Of a stretch of DNA of 64,000 bases, positions 2,908-64,000 are shown piece by piece (position 1 is the first letter of the stretch; every line of letters starts with the position of its first letter). Source of the stretch: Hormiphora californensis. Its lineage: Eukaryota; Animalia; Ctenophora. The notes beneath the pieces were generated by a model. The model was not told where the DNA came from. It ran no database searches and saw only the letters and a list, made by a program, of their open reading frames with translations. Made by a program: the position numbers and the translations under genes. Where the stretch lies: the NCBI GenBank assembly GCA_020137815.1, contig CM035352.1:4154001-4218000 (forward strand), in the 5' to 3' direction.

Positions 2908-28195
<25,288 letters not shown>

Positions 28196-37800: not shown

Positions 37801-40606
37801 GCAGCTCTGTTGTACTGTGCAGCAATATTATAGAGCTGAGTGATATGCAGCCGAGGAGGAGGAATCTTGTTAAACTACCAGCCCCCACTCATTTTATAAG
37901 TGTGCCGCCTCGATGGAGCTGTGAGAAACCAGAAATGCGTGCGAGAAATTAATAGAAATGTTAGGGAAAGAGAGGGAGGGGGAGGGAGAAATTGTAAAAA
38001 GTGCACCGTCTCACGGTGTCGGTACCATCATAGCGTCTTATTGGAGTATTGGACTGGATAGTGGATACGGCATTCAACACTAGTTTTATCGCCTACTTGC
38101 TATATCGGACCACAGAGATTGAGAGAAGTAGGTAAAATGAAGAAGCTAGAAGCGGTAGCATCGTCCATAAACTGGGATACGTGGTGGTAACAAAGTTACC
38201 CCTCCCTTGCCGGTTTTCGAGTGGACCAAGGATTCAATATGATGGTACGAGTTTGTTATGTTCTAACCATCTCCTTTACATTTGTGTTTCGCGGGCGGGT
38301 CGCACGAAACACAGACTAGCTAGGCAAGGTACGAGTAACACATGCCCGTCCAAAAACCCTGTTACCCACTCACCTGGGGCAAGGTATTTAGTGTAGGTGA
38401 CAGCGTGGGTTTTAGAAAACTTCTCAGAAAGCATAAAGACAGGTCGATGCATGCTCACTTTGCTGTTTGTACTGAGTTGAAGACTTCTTTCCAGAAGAGA
38501 AAACATCCCAAAACCGGTGATATTAACGGCCTGAGGGCGCTGGGGTGTCAGGGGTTAGGAACAGGGAGGGTGATGGGATGTCAGGGGTTAGAAACAGGGA
38601 GGGTGATGGGGTGTCAGACTGTCAGAGGTTAGGAACAGGGAGGGTGATGGGGTGTCTGGGGTTAGAAACAGCGAGGATGCTGGGGTGTCAGGGGTTAGAA
38701 ACAGGGAGGGTGATGGGGTGTCAGGGGTTAGAAACAGGGAGGGCGCTGGGGTGTCAGGGGTTAGAAACAGGGATGGTGATGGGGTGTCAGGGGTTAGAAA
38801 CAGGGAGGTTGATGGGGTGTCAGGGGTTAGGAACAGGGATGGTGATGGGGTGTCAGGGGTTAGAAACAGGGAGGGTGGTCGCCGGTCGGGTGTCAGGGGT
38901 TAGAAATAGGGAGAAGAAGAGAAAAAGCCTAGAAAAGGAGAAAGACAAGCAGTTCAATATTTGCGGTTGCAACTTGAGTGATTACAGTGTTTGTTACATG
39001 TTGCTGTAAATTCTAAACAAGTACACCTCCAATGCAGGAGTATCCAGTTTTTGACCTCAACTTGGCACTTGTTTCGTTATGCTCAAATCTCCGCTCAACA
39101 AGGATGATTTATGTTGATCTACGACCCGAACTGTGCAGTGTCACGTGACTTGAGTGTGTACCACGTGACATGTCAACATTGACAGGAACTACACGTTACT
39201 TCGCGCCAGATTCAGCAAGCTTCCCCAGGAGTGCTTGACGGACGTAATTACACACACACAAACACTATCACTCACTCTCTCTCTCTTGAATATAATATAA
39301 TTCACTGCAAGGTATCTCTCACAGAGAGGGAGGCATTTGATGCATGTTTCCATAGCAACAAAGAGAGGAACAACTGTATCCTATTACTAGGGAGGGAGAG
39401 GGAGAGAGGATAGAAGAAGAGAAAAAAGGAGAGAGAAAAAAACCCCCTTCTTCCCTCCCCCCTCTTCCTCTCCCCTCTTCCCCCTTTTCTCTCCTCTCCT
39501 CTCTCCTCTTTTCCTCTCCCTCCCTTCTTTCTCTCTCTCGCCCTCTCTCCCTCTTCTCTCCTTTTTTTCCCCTTTTTTTTCCCCCCTTTTTCGTTCCTTC
39601 CCCCCCCCTTCCCCCCCTTAAATACATCGAAAAGGGATTTCATTTTTTTCAAAAAATTCAAAAAAGGTGAAATTTTCATTCTCGTAATTAAGTTTCCCCC
39701 ATTTTCTTTTTTCATTGGATTACCTACGGGGAAACCAAAAAAAACAAACTCGGAAAGGCTTGCCTCAGTGGAAGAATCAAGAAAGACCTGGTTCTAATTT
39801 ACCACAGATACTCTAATTGGAACGAATAGAATGTCCAATGTTCCGGTATTACTTTTATTTTTTCCCTGCCCGTGTGAATGCCGAAGGCATTCACCCGGAA
39901 ACCTTTTTACTTTGGGAAAAAAGGGATAGCAGGGGGAGAATTCAAAACGACATTTTGGTATACTAACTATCGGAGGGGACATTTTTGGGGCAACTTTATT
40001 GCGGGGGCAACGGGGTAGCAAAAAGAGCCCCCCAGTTCCCACTGCTCCTCAAAACCCTTCATTGGGCAAAAGTTTCAGGAAAAATGTGGGCGCGCAATTG
40101 GGGCGTGGCGCGCAAAATTTTTACTAAAACCAAGGATTTTTCTCTAAAAATGTTTGTGTGATTTTTAAATGATCGGGGTTTTTTTTCCCCCCTTCTCTCC
40201 GGGTGGGCCTGTTTTTCCCTTTTTTCCCTAAAATTCACATGGCAGGGAAATTCAGCATTATGTTAGAACATAATGCAATTAATCTTGTTGAATTATTTTA
40301 TTGGCTCTGAAGTCATCCCAATTAACGACAACAGCCTCAGACGACGAGGTTACACCTGAACAATACAACAGATGACGAGGTTACACCACTTCACCCCCCG
40401 GGGACCACTCACTCACGAGCACTCATAATGTCGACAAGATCGCATTGACGAAAGTCACGATAGTTTGATTGGGTTTCCCTAACCCGACACCGCGAAGAAG
40501 AAGAAGTCCTGCACCTACCTTCTACAGAGAGTTGAATGGGTATCAGTGTATACCGACATTTCTTTGCCTCAGTCACTAAAGTGGTGATTGCATCCCCAGA
40601 CAACAT
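34892..40606 (-). CDS. CCDC81: Coiled-coil domain-containing protein 81 (HU-CCDC81 domains plus coiled coil), multi-exon
   Basis: Exon 40519-40606 MLSGDAITTLVTEAKKCRYTLIP. Then AVNITGFGMFS..HRPVFMLSEKF (about 38.4-38.5 kb), EIPVVQLN..CLREILAAFSR..FKDIG (about 37.3-37.55 kb), HSGGQELCYVCHQR, and C-terminal CDRYKRCRQC..NIWRESRFIPGCRLIV. Exon 2 is probably in the degraded zone near 39.75 kb. Confidence 0.85.
38540..38905. repeat. 30-bp G-rich minisatellite abutting a CCDC81 acceptor
   Basis: Unit GGGGTGTCAGGGGTTAGAAACAGGGAGGGT-like, about 12 copies. Confidence 0.92.
39346..39359. promoter_or_regulatory. Candidate RFX X-box in CCDC81 intron
   Basis: GTTTCCATAGCAAC matches GTHNYYATRRNAAC, inside a ciliary/centrosomal gene. 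Confidence 0.45.
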
Positions 40607-55065: not shown

Positions 55066-56535
55066 TTATAGACCAAAACAAACCAGTTTCTCCTCTTGGA
55101 ACTCGTGAATCCCAACATGACCCGCCTCCCGTCCAATACCACTCTCCTTCCATCCTCCAAATGGATTATTAGCGGAGGATATGGCTCCTTCATTGACTGC
55201 TACCATCCCATACTCCAACTCCTCAGAAACCCTCCAGGATTGGGCGAGATCCTGGGTAAAAATGAACGCTTGTAACCCATAACGGGTGTTATTTGCTAAC
55301 CTCACCGCTTCTTCCTCAGATGAGAACGAATAGACGGGTGCTATAGGGCCGAATATTTCGGTGTGAAAGAGAGGTGTTTCGTGGTCCGAGCCGCACATAA
55401 CCACTCGGGGAGACACAAAAGGAGAAGAGTTGGAGTCTGGTTTTGTGATTGTTTCATGTTGACTGGTGCCTAATAAGGTTGAAACTCTTTCAAATGCCCG
55501 GGAATTAACAAGCGGTCCAACTGAAATACCATCATCCAACCCATTTCCAACTTTCAGTTTGCAAACTCGTTTCGCCAACTTCTCGACAAACTCACTGTAG
55601 AGGGATTCGTGAACCAGGATACGATTGGCAGCATTGCATGCTTGGCCGGCATTCCTGAATTTGGCCAACATGCACCCAGCAACTGCCCTATCCACATCGG
55701 CACTTTGAAACACAATGAAAGGAGCATTACCACCCAGCTCCAGGTGTAACCGTTTAATTGTGTCCCCACACTGCCTGTAGAGAAGTTTTCCAACCTCCGT
55801 CGATCCTGTAAAACTGAGACAAGCCACATCCTCACTCTCACACAGAGTCTCTCCGAGCACCTGTTTGTCTTCTCGTGCACACGGAATAACGTTGAATAGG
55901 CCCTCAGGGAAGCCTGCCTTGACAGCAAGTTCACCCATGAACAGTGACGTCAGAGGGGTGTCCTCAGAGGGAGCGTTGATAACGGAACAACCCGCTGCAA
56001 TTGCTGCACCCGCCTTACGGGTTACCATGGCAATGGGGAAATTCCAAGGAGTTATAGTAGCCACCACACCAACGGGTTGTCGGATACTGATGGGCCGCCA
56101 CCGGGCTTGACCTGGTGTCAGGACTTCTCCCGTTAGGCCTGTTCGAATCTGGGCAGCAAAATGGGGAAGGAAACTGTTTCCATATAAAACTTCCCCCTTG
56201 GCCTCGGAAAGAGGCTTTCCCATCTCCAGGGTAACAAGTTCCGCGAGAGTGGACGCATTTTTGGAAATTTCTTCGGACCACTTCAACAGCAAATCTGCCC
56301 TGTACGATGGTAAAGAAGTTCGGAACTTGGAGAAACACTCTTGGGCAGCCTGGATAGCAGCTAAAACCTCAACGCGACCACAGGAGGAGACATCTCCAAT
56401 GGATTCACCTGTTGCAGGGTTTATGGATTGGGTGACACGTGACGTTGAAACTGCACAATTCTTTATCAACGCTTTGTTTAGACCAGAGAACCTTTGAAGA
56501 GTCATCGCTATAACAATAACAATAACAATATACAT
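55066..56535 (-). CDS. ALDH5A1: Succinate-semialdehyde dehydrogenase (ALDH5/GabD family), intronless
   Basis: ITPWNFPIAMVTRK, FTGSTEVGK, LELGGNAPF (catalytic Glu), KFRNAGQAC (catalytic Cys), EIFGP and PFGGWKESGIGRE. The start may be the second Met at 56505. Confidence 0.9.
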   Translation of the reverse strand: MYIVIVIVIAMTLQRFSGLNKALIKNCAVSTSRVTQSINPATGESIGDVSSCGRVEVLAAIQAAQECFSKFRTSLPSYRADLLLKWSEEISKNASTLAELVTLEMGKPLSEAKGEVLYGNSFLPHFAAQIRTGLTGEVLTPGQARWRPISIRQPVGVVATITPWNFPIAMVTRKAGAAIAAGCSVINAPSEDTPLTSLFMGELAVKAGFPEGLFNVIPCAREDKQVLGETLCESEDVACLSFTGSTEVGKLLYRQCGDTIKRLHLELGGNAPFIVFQSADVDRAVAGCMLAKFRNAGQACNAANRILVHESLYSEFVEKLAKRVCKLKVGNGLDDGISVGPLVNSRAFERVSTLLGTSQHETITKPDSNSSPFVSPRVVMCGSDHETPLFHTEIFGPIAPVYSFSSEEEAVRLANNTRYGLQAFIFTQDLAQSWRVSEELEYGMVAVNEGAISSANNPFGGWKESGIGREAGHVGIHEFQEEKLVCFGL

Positions 56536-56662
56536 ATTTAAATCGCTTTTGAGCTATATAATGCTATTCTCGATCCGCTTAAACAGCGTCCTCTCGATAA
56601 TAGCAAGCTTTCTAAAGCGCTTCATCGCTGAAATAACCTATAGACATTCGTCCTCGTCGTCA

Positions 56663-56744
56663 TCACTGCGCTGGCAAGCGCAAAGGTGACCCCATCCATC
56701 CCCCGAAAAAAATTTCCCCCAAAAACGGCCCGCTTGCTCACAGC
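56663..56744 (+). repeat. 5' piece of the 8876-9168 repeat, cut off at the LINE 3' tail
   Basis: Near-identical to 8876-8958 up to CTCACAGC. Confidence 0.8.
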
Positions 56745-57075
56745 TATGAATATGAATATGAACTTCACAATTTATATCAAGTCAATATAAGAAAATATAT
56801 GACTCTCCCGCTCTTACACTATACGTATAAAATATAGTTAAAAATTAAGTACATTAATATACGCTTCTAGGCCGAGGCTAATAGCACAACAGCAGTTACC
56901 TAAAGCGGGACAAACACACACAGACGAACCAATGAGACGGGTAACAATGAGCTGAGAGCTAAACGGACAGATAGATTTAACCAGGTTTAATAAATTACTA
57001 AAATCGAAAAGAAAAAGGCGAATAAGTTAGTTAAAAATACGGTAGTTACAAAACACCACCACACATACACACACA

Positions 57076-57126
<51 letters not shown>

Positions 57127-57649
57127 CTCACACTCAAACTCACACTCACACTCACACTCACACTTATACCCCAACACCCAAAAGATAAAGACATACACAA
57201 AACACAAATAAGTTAAGTTAAATAAGTTAATTAAAAAATGGTCATCTCACAAGAGAACACAAAGGTGCACACACAAACGGACACAGCATACCTAGACTAC
57301 TTGGAAACAGTAAATCATGTTCAGCACACATCGTTTACATAAAAATAGTAAGATTGTCATTGATAAACACATACTTATCATCACTTTCGAAGTGTTCATT
57401 TACAGTCTGCAGGAATAACTGCACTTTCAGCCGTTTTCGTAACGGTACACGTTTCTTGTAACTGTTTTCTCCTGGCCCATACTCGGCCAATTCTCGACTA
57501 CCCTCAGACTCTACTCCACATCTCAGTTGCCAAGATCCTACTAACCCATACACCCACCACACACAAACGAACAAGAATACGCACTCAAAAAACCCTAGCT
57601 CTGAACAATATGTGGAGGACGTCTCTCCTAACTCGGGATGGTGGTGAAA

Positions 57650-58290
57650 TAGGACGGATGGTGGAGGATAGGAGTGATGGTACTATCTAGGACAGCTGAT
57701 AGAGGATAGGAACAGGATGATGGAGGATAGGATGGATGGTGAAGGATGGATGGTGGAGGATAGGAAGGATGGTGGGGGATTGGACGGATGATGGAGGATG
57801 GGAGAGATGGTGGAGGATAGGACGGGTGGTGGAAAGTTTGACGAAAGATGGAGGATAGGACGGATGGTCGAGGATAGGACGAATGGTGAAAGGATGCGAC
57901 AGATGGTGGTGGAGGATATTTCAGATCATGGTGGAGGATAGGACGGATGGTGGAGGATATGACGGATGGTGGAGGATATGACGGATGGTGGAGGATGGGA
58001 CGGATGGTGGAGGATAGGACGGATGGTGAAGGATAGGACGAAAGGTGGAGACTGGGACAGATGGTGGAGGATAGGACGAAAGGTGGAGGAAAGGACGGAT
58101 GGTGAAGGATAGGATGGATAGGATGGTGGAGGATAGAGCATATAGCATATGGTGGAGGATAGGACGAATGGTGGGGGATAGGACGGATGGTGGAGGAAAG
58201 GACGGATGGTGGAGGATAGGACAGATGGTGGAGGGTAGGACGAAAAGTGGAGGATAGGATGGATGGTGGAGGATATGATGAGTGGTTGAG
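57650..58290. repeat. About 19-bp GGA-rich minisatellite in the LINE 3' UTR, plus (CA)n near 57060-57160
   Basis: Degenerate GGATGGTGGAGGATAGGAC units. Confidence 0.9.
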
Positions 58291-58406
58291 GATAGAATCT
58301 ATGAAAGGATTCAGAGGTCAGGATTCAGGAGGTCAGAGGAAATCGGAAGGTCATTCAGGTTACGATCATACTAGGTATTGTATGTATGATATCATAGGAA
58401 CGGAAG

Positions 58407-61352
58407 TTAGTCATAGGCAATGTTGAACAGGTGAGTCTTCAGTGATTTCTTGAATGTTGCTACAGACTCTGATTTCCTGATTAATTTTGGAAGTCTGTTC
58501 CAGAGTTTTGGTGCAGCAATGCTAAATGCTTTCTCAGTAACCTTGTACTTGCAGTGGTACTCCTCTAATCTTGTGTCATCGTCATCTACTCTGAGTTTCT
58601 TGGACTTCGCCTGCCTCTTCTGGATCATCTCAGTGATGTAGCATGGAGATTTACCATTAAGTGCATTGTATACCATTAGGCACATTTTGTACTTGATGCG
58701 TTGGTTGATTGGAAGGAAGTGGGATTTCTTTCTCAATTCGGTTACACCTCTTCTGCTGCGCTGACCGTATATAAATCGTGTGGCCGCGTTTTGGAGTACT
58801 TGGAGACGTTTTATATCGGATTCCTTCGAACCAAGGAGTAGGGCATTACAGTAATCGATTCTGGAGTGTATCAGGGTGTTGACAAGAAGAGTCTTCTGGT
58901 TCTTGTTTAGCTTACTAGCTATCCTCCACATGTTTACCAACTGTAGATTGCCCATCTGGACTATCCGTGTTACATGCTTGGTCATGTTTAGCTCTTTATC
59001 AAATATTACTCCCAGGTTCTTGGCTACTTCAGTTACAACTGTATCCTCATCTTCTGTTATGGCGACTGTATCAGGAGCTTCCGATTTATCCCATTTGTTG
59101 TTAAGTATCATGACCTCCGTCTTGTTAGGATTCAACTTGAGAAGATTTTGAGCCATCCATAGTCTAATATGAGCAACACACTTTTGTACCTGGCTCATAG
59201 CTGAAATTAGGTTTTCAGGCACAAAAGATATAGAGAGCTGTGTATCATCTGCGTACATATGTATCTTTAGATTGTACAGCTGAGCAATCTTCTCCAGGTC
59301 ACGGGTGTAGAGTATGAAGAGAAGGGGCCCCAAAATCGATCCTTGAGGGACTCCGATTTTGATGGTCGTGGTAGCAGATTCGTTCGGTCCGATCTTCACT
59401 ATCGCAGTTCTATCATTCAAATAAGACTCTATCCATTTGAGAACTCTGCCAGTGATTCCATAGTCTTGCTGTAGACGTTGAATGAGCTTAGAGTGAGATA
59501 TAGTGTCAAAAGCTGCCGATAGATCGAGCAGCACAAGGATCACTTTTGTTTTCTTGTCCATCTGTATTAGAGTGTCGTTTACGATCTTCAAAGTTGCAGT
59601 CTCACAGCTATGGTGTGAGCGATACGCAGACTGGACCTTGCTAAAAAGTCCATTGCTCTCAATGTGCTCAGTGAGTTGATCGGCAACACATTTTTCTAGG
59701 ATCTTGGACACAAAGGAGAGATTAGAGATCGGTCTGTAGCTACTGAGTTCGTCTGGGTCCAATTCTTTGTTTTTCAAGGAGGGTCGGATAACAGCGGATT
59801 TTAAGTTGGCTGGAACCACTCCGTCCGATAGACTACCGTTCACAATCTTAGAGATAATGGGGACGAGTTCTGTCAGAGAACCAGCTACCATGGTGGATGG
59901 AATAGGGTCGAGAGGACAGTGTTTCTTGTTCATGCTCCGAACAGTTGATACAAGTTCGGCGTCAGACACTGTCCTAAACTTGGAGAGTACCGGGCAGTGA
60001 TGAGCAGATAGTTCATGGGGAATAGTTGGCAGATCAGCTGAGTAAGCAGGGTCCTCTTTAATTGTCTCATAAATCTTCTCGATCTTGGATTTAAAGTAGT
60101 CCATCATCTTGTCTGGAAGCTTCTCAGGCTCATCTGTGGTTGGTAACTGCTTTGGAACTTTCTCTTTGCCAAGAAGATAGTTAAGGATCTGATAGGTAGC
60201 AGCAGGATTACCTTCAGCGGCTTCAAGGCGTATTTGGAAGAACATTCTTCTGGCTCGAGTGAAAACAAGCTTTGCAGCACGGATTTCAGTGATAAACTCC
60301 TTCTCTGCATCTAGCACTTTGTCGTGGGGGACGGGTTTGCCCTTGTTTTTCTTTTGTAGGGCTTGTTTAAGGGTTTTCCTGTATCTTCGCTCAGCCTTCC
60401 TACGCCTTCTAAGGGCATTATAGCACTCTTGGTTGAACCACTGTGGTTTGCTGGAGAGTTTGATGTCTTTATCCTCAATCGGTGCCAGTTCATCTAGTAT
60501 CTGTACAAGAGTAGTGTTATAGAGTTCAACACATTCCTCAACGGTCTTTGGAAGAGGTTGTTTACAGAGTTTAGATTGGAGTATGTAGGTTTTCAGGGTT
60601 TCAATCGATAGTTTCTTCAATGATCGTCCAGTAACTTTCTTGGAGATTAGCTTCCTGTTCGCTGACCCACAATGTAGATGAAAGTCAACGAGAAAGTGGT
60701 CTGGAGCCTCGGGGGTCGGGATAACATTCACAGAGCTTACAATGGGGACATCCTTCGTCAAAACAAGGTCCAGGGTTCCTCCTAGGATATGGGTGGGTTC
60801 TTGAACATGCTGGATCCATCCATGGTCTTCCAAGGTTTGCAGGAAACCGTTTGCAAGAGTGCATGTAGGCTTTTCGATGTGTATATTGAAATCCCCGGTT
60901 ATCATCAAATGGCCAGACTTCGAAGAGAAAGAGGACAAGAAAGCTTCAAAATCATCCAGAAACTGTATCTGCTTAGGTTGGTTTGGAGGGCGGTAGATTA
61001 CTGCTATTCTTGTGAGATCAATACCTGGACCGTAAATAGTGGCTTCAAGAAGCTCAAAGGTTAGGAACTTTTTCTTCGGTTTACATTTCTTTACATTTAT
61101 TCCATCCCTATAAATGAGTGCCACGCCCCCACCTCTGCTACCTCTAGCCACATTGAGTAAATTGAAGTTCAGCTCAGCGATTTCTCTTGAGAGGGCTTCA
61201 TCATTAGGGGATAACCAGGACTCAGTAATGCATAGTACATCTAGTTCCTGTTCAGCGGCTAGAATAAGTACTTCTTCAGTTTTGTTTCGCAGTGAGCAGC
61301 AATTAAGATTACCGATGCGAAGATAAGGGACATTGAGCAGATCTAGTTTTTT
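58407..61352 (-). CDS. LINE ORF2: APE endonuclease + reverse transcriptase (no AUG upstream of the APE domain)
   Basis: GNLNCCSL, CITESWL, IYRPP, TGDFN, TLDLV, PDH; YRPISNL, LDLSAAFDT, GVPQGSILGP, YADDTQ; C-terminal HFLPI..RI.YK and FKKSLKTHLF (L2-like). Confidence 0.95.
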   Translation of the reverse strand, partial: KKLDLLNVPYLRIGNLNCCSLRNKTEEVLILAAEQELDVLCITESWLSPNDEALSREIAELNFNLLNVARGSRGGGVALIYRDGINVKKCKPKKKFLTFELLEATIYGPGIDLTRIAVIYRPPNQPKQIQFLDDFEAFLSSFSSKSGHLMITGDFNIHIEKPTCTLANGFLQTLEDHGWIQHVQEPTHILGGTLDLVLTKDVPIVSSVNVIPTPEAPDHFLVDFHLHCGSANRKLISKKVTGRSLKKLSIETLKTYILQSKLCKQPLPKTVEECVELYNTTLVQILDELAPIEDKDIKLSSKPQWFNQECYNALRRRRKAERRYRKTLKQALQKKNKGKPVPHDKVLDAEKEFITEIRAAKLVFTRARRMFFQIRLEAAEGNPAATYQILNYLLGKEKVPKQLPTTDEPEKLPDKMMDYFKSKIEKIYETIKEDPAYSADLPTIPHELSAHHCPVLSKFRTVSDAELVSTVRSMNKKHCPLDPIPSTMVAGSLTELVPIISKIVNGSLSDGVVPANLKSAVIRPSLKNKELDPDELSSYRPISNLSFVSKILEKCVADQLTEHIESNGLFSKVQSAYRSHHSCETATLKIVNDTLIQMDKKTKVILVLLDLSAAFDTISHSKLIQRLQQDYGITGRVLKWIESYLNDRTAIVKIGPNESATTTIKIGVPQGSILGPLLFILYTRDLEKIAQLYNLKIHMYADDTQLSISFVPENLISAMSQVQKCVAHIRLWMAQNLLKLNPNKTEVMILNNKWDKSEAPDTVAITEDEDTVVTEVAKNLGVIFDKELNMTKHVTRIVQMGNLQLVNMWRIASKLNKNQKTLLVNTLIHSRIDYCNALLLGSKESDIKRLQVLQNAATRFIYGQRSRRGVTELRKKSHFLPINQRIKYKMCLMVYNALNGKSPCYITEMIQKRQAKSKKLRVDDDDTRLEEYHCKYKVTEKAFSIAAPKLWNRLPKLIRKSESVATFKKSLKTHLFNIAYD

Positions 61353-62803
61353 GATTGTAACTGCTGCAACTGTTGGCGGACAGGGCACAATCTATCTCCA
61401 CTGTGGTGACGGCTGGCCTCGGATTTGAAAGTATCAGAACTACTGCAGTTAATACAAAACAGTTTTTCCCTATCGGTACAATCCTTGACATCGTGATTAT
61501 CTCCACAAAGTTTGCAAACTAGTACTGAGCTGGTGCACTCAGTGGTCCTGTGGTTGAAACGGTGGCATTTAATACACTGTGGAATGTGGAAACGTTCCAC
61601 AACATTAAGTCGGGATGTTGCATAGTATATTTTACCGGCGTCAAGGAGACGCTGTTGTGCGGGAATCGGTAGACGCAGGCCAATGGTACATTTATCCTTA
61701 TTCCGGTAGTGACTTTTGATGTACACGATGGTTACCTCTTCAGTCTTGAGCCATGGGTTTTTGAGTTGGAGCATGGTTAGCACTTTATCCTTAGCTTGGT
61801 CGTTTGACAAGGATTCGATGTTTTCAGGTACATTCAGTATAGTCACTTTAGCAGTGGAGGATAGAGTGGTAACTGTTGCATCTTTAGGTATCGCCTCTGT
61901 GACTAGCTGTATTACTGCCTCAATGTTAGTAGATTCAGGGAATCCAATCTTGATCTCTGCAGCATTTTTTGTGTCAAGGAACAGCATAGGTGTCTCGGCA
62001 AGGCAGTCACTTACAGACTTGGCTGTTTTACTGGAGTCGTTAACGCCGCAAGAAATAAGCAGCTTATGCACTCTCTCACGGGGTTGTGATTGGGTGGGGG
62101 TTTGTTGCTGGGTTTGTTTAGTTCTAGCCTGGGGATGAGCTTGGGGTTGTGGAGCTGCGGCAGTTGAATCAATTGCACTTGTGGCAGGTGTATTGATGTT
62201 CAAAGCATCCGAGTAGTTTGCTCTGTTACCTTGGGGAGTAGCAATGTCTGTAGGCGCGTTTTCAGCTCGAGTGTGTTGCTGGGTGACGGTTTTAGTAGGA
62301 GCAGTTGCAGTAGAGGCGAAGATGCGGGCAGCGTTTTCAGCTATTTTATTGAATAATGCGCTGTCGGGTTGCATCAGTTGGGCGAAAACTAGACAAACAG
62401 GGCAAGACCAACCAGGGGCGTTATAAACACCATCGGTAATAGGGATGGACCCTTTTGCAATAGAGAGGAAATTAAGGCCAACGCAGTCTGCATGATAGTG
62501 AGTATTGCAGGAATAGCAGTGTACGAGACCAGAGCTACCGGGTTCAGTAGGGTTTTTGCCACATAGGCATTTCCTTGACGCCGAGGTGAGTATATGAGGC
62601 GTTTGGGTTGGGTCGCTCATGATGTTGGGAACGGGACTTGGGGTGGAGAATAGTCCGGGTGTAGTCCCAGGGTTACATTGGGGGTCGATGTTTTTACGTA
62701 CCGGTGTTGTAGTGAAACTGATCTCAGAGAACTCTTTACCGTTCCGTAGTCCGCTCGTCAACTCAGGAGTTGGACTGCTTCTTTGGCCGTCCATCATCTT
62801 CAC
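61343..62803 (-). CDS. LINE ORF1: PHD finger + gag-type CCHC knuckles
   Basis: CLC..CYSC..H..C..CPVC (PHD). Knuckles CIKC..H..C, CKLC..H..C and CINC..H..C. Ends QSKN*. Confidence 0.9.
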   Translation of the reverse strand: MKMMDGQRSSPTPELTSGLRNGKEFSEISFTTTPVRKNIDPQCNPGTTPGLFSTPSPVPNIMSDPTQTPHILTSASRKCLCGKNPTEPGSSGLVHCYSCNTHYHADCVGLNFLSIAKGSIPITDGVYNAPGWSCPVCLVFAQLMQPDSALFNKIAENAARIFASTATAPTKTVTQQHTRAENAPTDIATPQGNRANYSDALNINTPATSAIDSTAAAPQPQAHPQARTKQTQQQTPTQSQPRERVHKLLISCGVNDSSKTAKSVSDCLAETPMLFLDTKNAAEIKIGFPESTNIEAVIQLVTEAIPKDATVTTLSSTAKVTILNVPENIESLSNDQAKDKVLTMLQLKNPWLKTEEVTIVYIKSHYRNKDKCTIGLRLPIPAQQRLLDAGKIYYATSRLNVVERFHIPQCIKCHRFNHRTTECTSSVLVCKLCGDNHDVKDCTDREKLFCINCSSSDTFKSEASRHHSGDRLCPVRQQLQQLQSKN

Positions 62804-62921
62804 GACTATCGATGTCGACTTACAGAGACTATCAATATCGGGTCTCTCGTCAGATAGGTTGGCTTATGTTACGGGTTCGTCACCTCCCCCGTAACTTTAT
62901 TTGCTAGATGCCATCACCTAT

Positions 62922-62964
62922 CTCAAATTAATTTGTTTAAAGTAGTGTTGAAAAGTTTGAAACT
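62922..62964 (-). other. Spliced-leader exon-like sequence
   Basis: AGTTTCAAACTTTTCAACACTACTTTAAACAAATTAATTTGAG matches the ctenophore SL as I recall it. It is followed by ATAG rather than a GT donor. Confidence 0.75.
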
Positions 62965-63959
62965 ATTCCAAAAAGATGTTTTAAGTTTTTAAATTTCATG
63001 TAGGGCGGAAAGCTGACGGCTGTAAACCTTGCTTTAAGAGCGTTTCCGCCGTTTTTCTTAGTGGCCATACGCACAGCGCCCCACATGCGTCGTTCCCAGC
63101 GTCCAAAACCAACAATGTGTGCTTTTTCGTGCGTTTTGGACGCTGTGAACCACGCATGGGCTACGCTAGAACGAAGCCAATATGACGGAGCACCACTATT
63201 ATACGCATAAGGCAGCGCTTTTCAATCCAAAAACGGAAAAAGTCACAAAAAAGTTACAAAAAATATTTCTTAAAAATTTTTTTTTTTTATTTGTCCCGCG
63301 CGGCGTCGGCGAGCCATTGCTAAAAAGCGCGTCACGGTTAAGCAGCGCCTTCTACAAAAACTAGCGCCTCACGTTTCAAGTCATACAGTTTTCGCCTGTT
63401 TAGGGAGCTTTTGGCACAGCCAGACACTGACAGCACGGGTGAGTGTTGTACTACTTCATTTTACATCATATTTTGATATTCAGAAAGAAACTGATTTCAA
63501 CAGCTTAGGAAACGTAAACTCATTTGTTTACAATTACACATCACAATATTTTGCACTGCTTAAACAATCTTCAACTTATCAAATTTCAACTGTTCCAATT
63601 CCAATTATACTGCAGTTATACCGGGGAGATATATAACCCGGCATTAAACTGATGGATTTTAACAAACAAACAAATGAAAACAGTTCACGTACATTCTGTG
63701 TGACTTTGGCAAACTTGTCAGATGTAGTTTGTAATTACACCGGACCACTAATTTCAGAAAATTAGAAAAGGACCAGGTACAAATGACAATGGCCAACCGT
63801 ACAGAAGAAAAAGTATTACTAACTGTACTCTTATTTTATAATCACTCTCAATTCATGATCAGTTTACTCAAAGTTTAAACTGTTTAAAGAATTTCAATCT
63901 TATATCTGCTGAATACTAATAACTCTCGGTGTATAAATTAATGAGAACACACTTGTGTA

Positions 63960-64000
63960 CAGTTGGATCCCGATTTACCGGGGGGATGCTCGGAGGGGAA
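63960..64000. mobile_element. Start of a second copy of the 3361-3532 MITE family (opposite orientation)
   Basis: TA + CAGTTGGATCCCGATTTACCGGG..GGATGCTCGG. Confidence 0.75.

Follow-up and report, generated by a model that had tools for sequence, protein, structure and literature searches.

Several systems are known in which a spliced leader (SL) meets a transposable element. In Schistosoma mansoni, six SL exons are merged to transposable elements, and either trans-spliced, retro-transcribed elements or chimeric assembly was suggested as the cause (PMC5832876); in parasitic flatworms, partial leaders are found at LTR and LINE elements at 597 loci, for which integration of trans-spliced element RNA was suggested (PMC12582326). 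Dinoflagellate retrogenes carry relic SLs, and both a promoter role for these and re-splicing at AG have been discussed (PMC5585692). In Hydra, some 30% of the transposon Iso-Seq reads bear an SL (PMC12220107), and SL1 is found on a spliced RNA of Cer1 in Caenorhabditis elegans, an element whose 8-kb genomic RNA does not undergo trans-splicing at that site (PMC3315495). SL exons are among the targets of elements with a restriction-like endonuclease (RLE) (PMC4640811). In the ctenophore Hormiphora californensis, the leader is present on 56% of Iso-Seq reads, more than half of the annotated transcripts start with AG, and the genome holds 718 leader copies (PMC8527503). Portions of these papers were available, and our comparisons apply to those portions.

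We analysed a stretch of 64,000 nt of H. californensis DNA (the window) and found on its minus strand an intact LINE of about 6.2 kb, with both frames open, that encodes an APE endonuclease and a reverse transcriptase (RT), is of the L2/CR1 type, and has an SL exon as its first 43 bases, as a prior sequence-only reading had proposed. Public contigs of four of ten runs (X3, X5, X7 and X10; X1, X2, X4, X6, X8 and X9 were left out) were aligned to 58400-64000, and those of the DNA runs X3 and X5 were re-aligned to 62700-63300. The parts of the element are:

62922-62964, minus strand: SL exon of 43 nt, the 5′ end of the element; identical to the published leader minus its first G, and lacking in the X3 and X5 flank contigs
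62798-62921, minus strand: LINE 5′ leader with a 5-codon upstream ORF (uORF, 62914-62897); multicopy, depth 242-418 in X3 and at least 2820 in X5
61343-62797, minus strand: ORF1, 484 aa, with putative PHD finger, middle domain and three Cys/His knuckles; resembles ORF1 type IC
58407-61391, minus strand: ORF2, 994 codons from stop to stop, with APE endonuclease and RT; no ATG before codon 163
56748-58406, minus strand: presumed 3′ UTR, about 1.66 kb, assigned to the element by the tail repeats and the target-site duplication (contig alignment began at 58400)

The flatworm SL-retrotransposons resemble this locus in having a genomic SL attached to a retrotransposon. They were reported as side remarks, with partial leaders or with chimeric assembly possible, and the papers only suggest a trans-spliced origin, whereas the Hormiphora locus adds a full-length SL, an intact element, a likely target-site duplication, and a flank that is SL-free in other samples. 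With SLs joined to LINE and LTR elements already in print for flatworms, the view that an SL on an APE-type, L2-like element would be unusual was overstated. The dinoflagellate relic-SL retrogenes share the use of the SL as a DNA tag of reverse-transcribed mature RNA; in those cases host genes are carried, often behind partial or tandem relics, while here an autonomous LINE carries a single perfect SL. Hydra transposons and Cer1 are alike in that transposon transcripts use host trans-splicing, but those findings are at the RNA level, the available portions reporting no SL in a DNA copy, and the Hormiphora SL is in the DNA. NeSL, CRE and SLACS are non-LTR elements adjoining an SL exon; these use a restriction-like endonuclease and have SL genes as their insertion sites, in contrast to the Hormiphora LINE, which has an APE and brings the SL to an SL-free site. 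The target of SLACS is the SL gene. With LINEs of the L2 and CR1 lineages that have a type IC ORF1 (PMC4120745), our element shares an ORF2 with APE and RT, a putative PHD finger plus three CCHC-like knuckles, and short 3′ tandem repeats, to which it adds the 5′ SL and overlapping ORFs with a candidate −1 slip site. A literature search, with most subscription journals outside its scope, found no SL-headed LINE reported for ctenophores, and the available portions of PMC7986045, PMC5009743 and PMC2566580 contain nothing on SL-headed LINEs. This is apparently the first such LINE for ctenophores, SL-bearing retrotransposon loci being already known elsewhere.

On the minus strand, 62964-62922 matches the 44-nt H. 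californensis leader (PMC8527503) at 43 of 43 positions, with the leading G missing, which confirms the earlier recognition of this 43-mer as the ctenophore trans-spliced leader; the chance expectation for such a match in the 64-kb window is ~3e-20. In an SL RNA gene the exon would be followed by a GT donor and an intron with an Sm site. Re-reading the sequence gave ATAGGTG and then ATG after the 43-mer, with no GT donor, just as had been described; what comes next is ATAG and the LINE leader. An Rfam search returned three weak chance matches only, none of note at the SL locus. The SL does join the LINE leader. The ATG behind the SL (62914) was rejected as the ORF1 start: it opens only the five-codon uORF, and ORF1 starts at 62797, a position equivalent to the start of its relative P0121. 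Run X10, which has the same species label and is RNA only by guess, yielded 534 records aligned to the stretch, whose depth is concentrated on the bin of the SL; one of the six SL records listed begins at the SL start. X7 and X10 have zero cover of 62701-62887 and next to none of ORF1, which says nothing on expression. In one X3 contig (depth 31.4) a partial SL is followed directly by a new SL start (62934-62964), a tandem relic of the kind found in dinoflagellates.

The DNA on either side of the element bears on how the SL came to be there. Its features are:

62963-62966, minus strand: 5′ copy of a likely 4-bp target-site duplication (ATAG), whose final two bases double as SL bases 1-2 (microhomology)
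56744-56747, minus strand: 3′ copy of this likely ATAG duplication, sharing bases with the final tail repeat
62967-63414, no strand: host flank outside the element, CpG-rich, with a multicopy hairpin (63084-63158), probably upstream DNA of the dehydrogenase gene; low depth, SL-free continuation, CpG observed/expected (o/e) 1.49
56662-56744, no strand: host flank on the 3′ side, an 83-bp repeat with a second copy at 8875-8957 (98.8% identity)
55066-56535, minus strand: host aldehyde dehydrogenase gene (SSADH-like), on the same strand as the element and about 210 bp downstream of it

One contig in each DNA run spans position 62990. That of X3 (record 5; 187 nt, depth 88.9) aligns over 62963-63118 with 26 nt left over, and that of X5 (record 14; 434 nt, depth 390.9) over 62963-63084 with 307 nt left over. 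In both of the two runs the match stops exactly at 62963 and the contig continues into sequence that is not SL, since an SL continuation would have aligned. The pre-insertion site therefore had no SL, and the SL arrived with the insertion. Both contigs carry a 5-nt insertion at 62990 that is absent from the window, and so represent other alleles, or possibly a paralogous copy; the window's own junction of flank and SL was seen in neither run. The ATAG duplication is weak alone, with a chance of 0.005 at a fixed site and of ~0.1 with free registers. A site with a single ATAG would agree with the window as far as 62963 and depart from it one base further on, and both contigs stop at this point. 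Their continuation would then lead into 56743 and beyond; the 20-mer predicted for the empty site is matched nowhere else in the window. The two flanks are rich in CpG (o/e 1.49 on the 5′ side and 1.46 at 56536-56743, vs 0.65 for the window, of whose 142 tiles of 450 bp only 2 have 1.45 or more), which fits a single interrupted region upstream of the SSADH-like gene, a region that may be the promoter of that gene. SSADH is the best NCBIfam match of the dehydrogenase, below the curated cut-off.

These contigs also bear on an SL-targeted insertion of the NeSL or CRE kind, in which the LINE would have landed behind a pre-existing SL exon. Genomic SL copies are numerous, and some non-LTR elements do insert into SL exons (PMC4640811), yet the flank is without SL in two of two runs, no SL remnant stands at the 3′ junction, and the element encodes an APE, the only nuclease found by Pfam search of the element; we hold such an origin to be very improbable.

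Contig depth indicates what travels with the element. Summed contig depth is not copy number, and adjacent contigs differ by a quarter or more (noise that is plain in the depths 242, 418 and 314 of adjacent X3 leader contigs), so that only large ratios were used. In X3 the depth is 242-418 over the leader and 195 over ORF1, as compared with 88.9 at 62973-63056, 36 at 63179-63369 and 60.9 at 63340-63963; in X5 it is at least 2820 over the leader, 390.9 at 62973-63056 and 76 at 63179-63369. The leader thus exceeds the adjoining flank 2.7- to 4.7-fold in X3 and 7.2-fold in X5, while 63179-63369 has 0.18 times the depth of ORF1 in X3 and 0.03 times that of the leader in X5. Low depth together with the SL-free continuation indicates that 62965-63414 does not travel with the element. 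The hairpin at 63084-63158 had been correctly noted (−43.7 kcal/mol, z −7.9) and has a depth peak of its own, separate from the LINE (517-693 at 63078-63119 in X3, vs 88.9 beside it).

It had been proposed as a second model that the element captured an SL-gene promoter together with the exon, so that 62965-63414 would move with it between CACAGC duplications and copies would share some 450 bp upstream. The segment is CpG-rich and hairpin-bearing, CACAGC is found on both sides, and a 19-nt piece of the segment (63207-63225) is found no more than 40 nt from an SL in four other contigs. Against this, depth falls 2.7- to 7-fold below that of the leader immediately upstream, and further at 63179-63369, the flank continues SL-free, and CACAGC occurs twice upstream; we give this model almost no credence. 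The segment is host flank, probably the upstream DNA of the aldehyde dehydrogenase gene. CACAGC is indeed present at 63415-63420 and 56739-56744, but is a poor candidate for the target-site duplication: two copies of it (63420 and 63077) fall within 500 bp on the upstream side, the one at the 3′ junction coincides with the opening 6 nt of the 83-bp repeat that recurs at 8875-8957, and one X3 contig of low depth (63340-63963, depth 60.9) spans 63415-63420 unbroken.

The 83-bp repeat has equal boundaries in its two copies (8875-8957 and 56662-56744). It was considered as an SL RNA intron and rejected, there being no GT start after the SL and no SL upstream of the other copy. The four contigs with the 63207-63225 piece near an SL are from X3 and X5 and have it on either side of the SL; in one further contig it stands in tandem with the hairpin. 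SL-headed insertions could favour this motif, of which only the copies beside an SL were visible.

Other copies of the element were sought in the contigs. X3 record 4 (depth 314) takes in the last 3 nt of the SL and X5 record 13 (depth 1732) the last 5 nt, and the leader thus stays multicopy up to the last 3-5 bases of the SL in both runs; the X3 contigs after record 4 sum to a depth of about 328 on the premise that they begin at 62895. Among the 12 loose ends listed of 84, none points to another 5′ end at 62921-62926; if these are ranked by depth, as we assume, any hidden alternative 5′ end would have less than one fifth of the leader depth, the X5 entry in question being probably that of the contig of depth ~503. 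None of the 16 records listed of 1216 spans the joint of SL and leader by 31 bases in both directions. At the 3′ end of the SL, 24-26 contigs per run leave it with an agreement of 0.4 (mixed neighbours), and at its 5′ end groups of 8-10 contigs leave at 62962-62964 with an agreement of 0.4-0.5. Many SL copies with unrelated neighbours, and with 5′ ends within 2 bases of the SL start, are what frequent copying of SL-capped RNAs to their ends would lead one to expect. A second multicopy sequence (depth 138 in X3 and ~503 in X5) has the same leader and diverges near the ORF1 start (62797-62864); it may be a related subfamily or a non-autonomous partner.

These multicopy ends speak to the possibility of a one-off chimera, arising either by an RT switch from LINE RNA to SL RNA or to an SL-capped mRNA at insertion, or by an assembly mis-join across the 43-nt repeat. 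Template switching has a precedent in the U6-L1 chimeras. The junction of flank and SL is in neither X3 nor X5, one X3 contig seems to join the SL to 61856 in ORF1 (depth 126.5, short side 27 nt), and in the Schistosoma cases chimeric assembly was among the suggested causes (PMC5832876). The leader with the last 3-5 bases of the SL is nevertheless multicopy in both runs, and the 4-bp duplication agrees with the stop point of the SL-free flank contigs, and we regard a chimera as improbable. In the contig with the SL-61856 joint, SL position 62922 is the one joined and no AG acceptor is present at 61856; it is possibly a deleted derivative or a chance match.

Searches beyond these runs found the SL-leader junction in no metagenome contig, the SL in no viral contig, and the SL with a variable gap in no genome contig. 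Related loci numbered 80 in metagenomes and 80 in genome contigs, at 22-46% identity, with none in viral contigs. None of the 160 has the SL (best ungapped match 29 of 43), a blank that is uninformative since the loci are distant, mostly without 5′ ends, and from hosts not established as ctenophores.

As the SL forms the 5′ boundary and the site before insertion had none in two of two runs, the locus has the form of an SL-tagged retro-copy, and its candidate marks of retroposition are the 4-bp duplication and the 6-bp tail repeats, both short. The first model of the sequence-only reading, that an SL trans-spliced RNA was fully reverse-transcribed, gains support from the SL-free flank contigs of both DNA runs, X3 and X5. 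We consider it very probable that the SL entered by reverse transcription of an SL-headed RNA at some point. That SL-capped LINE RNA is reverse-transcribed to the cap end with trans-splicing renewed in each round is a narrower claim, which we hold in even balance. The insertion itself probably proceeded by target-primed reverse transcription from a nick at the ATAG site, within the CpG-rich DNA ahead of the dehydrogenase gene, and its 5′ end was probably closed by the 2-nt microhomology between ATAG and SL bases 1-2. In the renewal scheme, LINE RNA would be trans-spliced to the host SL and reverse-transcribed to the cap end. The new copy would then be read through from a host promoter and trans-spliced again at the AG that ends its DNA-encoded SL, so that every cycle would regain an identical 5′ end with no need of an internal promoter.

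The AG end of the SL resembles a candidate acceptor at 56630 ahead of the dehydrogenase. However, the SL ends in GAG, and a TAG stands 4 nt downstream. GAG is a rare splice acceptor, and this together with the TAG speaks against easy renewal. We saw no outron acceptor of the CAG or TAG type at the SL-leader junction, X3 record 4 ending in GAG. That lack of a CAG or TAG variant favours a one-time capture, in which an ancestor's RNA was trans-spliced once, the SL has since been passed on as DNA, and a promoter in the SL or leader drives transcription from the first base of the SL or close to it. Such a capture fits all the DNA evidence of contigs and duplication as well as does the proposed use of host trans-splicing instead of an internal promoter, and a promoter role of relic leaders has been proposed in dinoflagellates (PMC5585692). 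Against it, the SL is still perfect with respect to the published leader, while leader variants differ at 6 of 102 positions; this argument is weak, because the window copy is only ~0.7% from the X3 contigs (10 of 1335), so that no change is expected in 43 nt. One-time capture is in our estimate a tenable though somewhat doubtful account.

If renewal in each round is true, it would give a randomly inserting LINE a promoter-free life cycle that depends on host trans-splicing. An SL-headed LINE offers a possible origin for the 718 Hormiphora leader copies, which the available portion of PMC8527503 discusses only as mapping targets, and not all SL copies in ctenophore assemblies are SL RNA genes. 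The fullest form of the renewal reading, a LINE family that lacks a promoter, regenerates its own SL head, is tolerated upstream of genes that still get their own SL, and is the source of hundreds of dispersed ctenophore SL copies, is speculative and in our view unlikely.

ORF1 has relatives at 48-71% identity. Its PHD match is weak (E 1.4e-4, below the Pfam cut-off), and the three Cys/His motifs are present; from its sequence it resembles type IC of the L2 and CR1 lineages, which has PHD, RRMs and three CCHC (PMC4120745). ORF2 matches PF03372/PF14529 (APE, at its N-terminus) and PF00078 (RT), the combination found in L2/CR1 LINEs, and its named relatives are from Pleurobrachia bachei (59% identity) and Mnemiopsis leidyi (36-38%), which, like the SL match, points to a ctenophore host. 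The RT motifs of ORF2 are, we presume, L2-like. The element is a LINE of the L2/CR1 type, and a place in the L2 clade in the strict sense, which these motifs suggest, is tentative. The presumed 3′ UTR contains a 19-bp tandem array (57636-58295) and a TG-rich run (57060-57163), and the element ends in three terminal 6-bp repeats (~56762-56745). Folds of the element tail, the SL with the leader, the region after the slip site, and the 83-bp repeat are non-significant (z −0.6 to −1.9).

ORF1 and ORF2 overlap at 61391-61343 on the minus strand, with ORF2 in the −1 frame, and the overlap contains one further feature:

61346-61352, minus strand: A_AAA_AAC heptamer directly before the ORF1 stop, a candidate −1 frameshift site

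All five ORF1 relative sequences seen have S/A-K-N at the heptamer position, and KKL is present there in three (P0001, P0007 and P0009; not P0003) of the four closest distinct ORF2 relatives with enough N-terminus; the distant loci L081 and L082 likewise have the A_AAA_AAC heptamer near the ORF2 start. This suggests that −1 frameshifting may occur between ORF1 and ORF2 at the heptamer. Downstream of it there is no significant hairpin (fold z −1.5), and a rival to frameshifting is initiation of ORF2 at the overlapping GTG/ATG at 61388.

Elsewhere in the window, 9900-11750 and 39300-40300 are homopolymer-rich and noisy-looking, and are probably poorly polished long-read assembly. At 20939-25142, inverted repeats of 968 bp, 98% alike, surround two ORFs (22135-23358 and 23509-24234), the second of which has a DEDD-type exonuclease match; from this arrangement the segment is probably a DNA transposon with long terminal inverted repeats.
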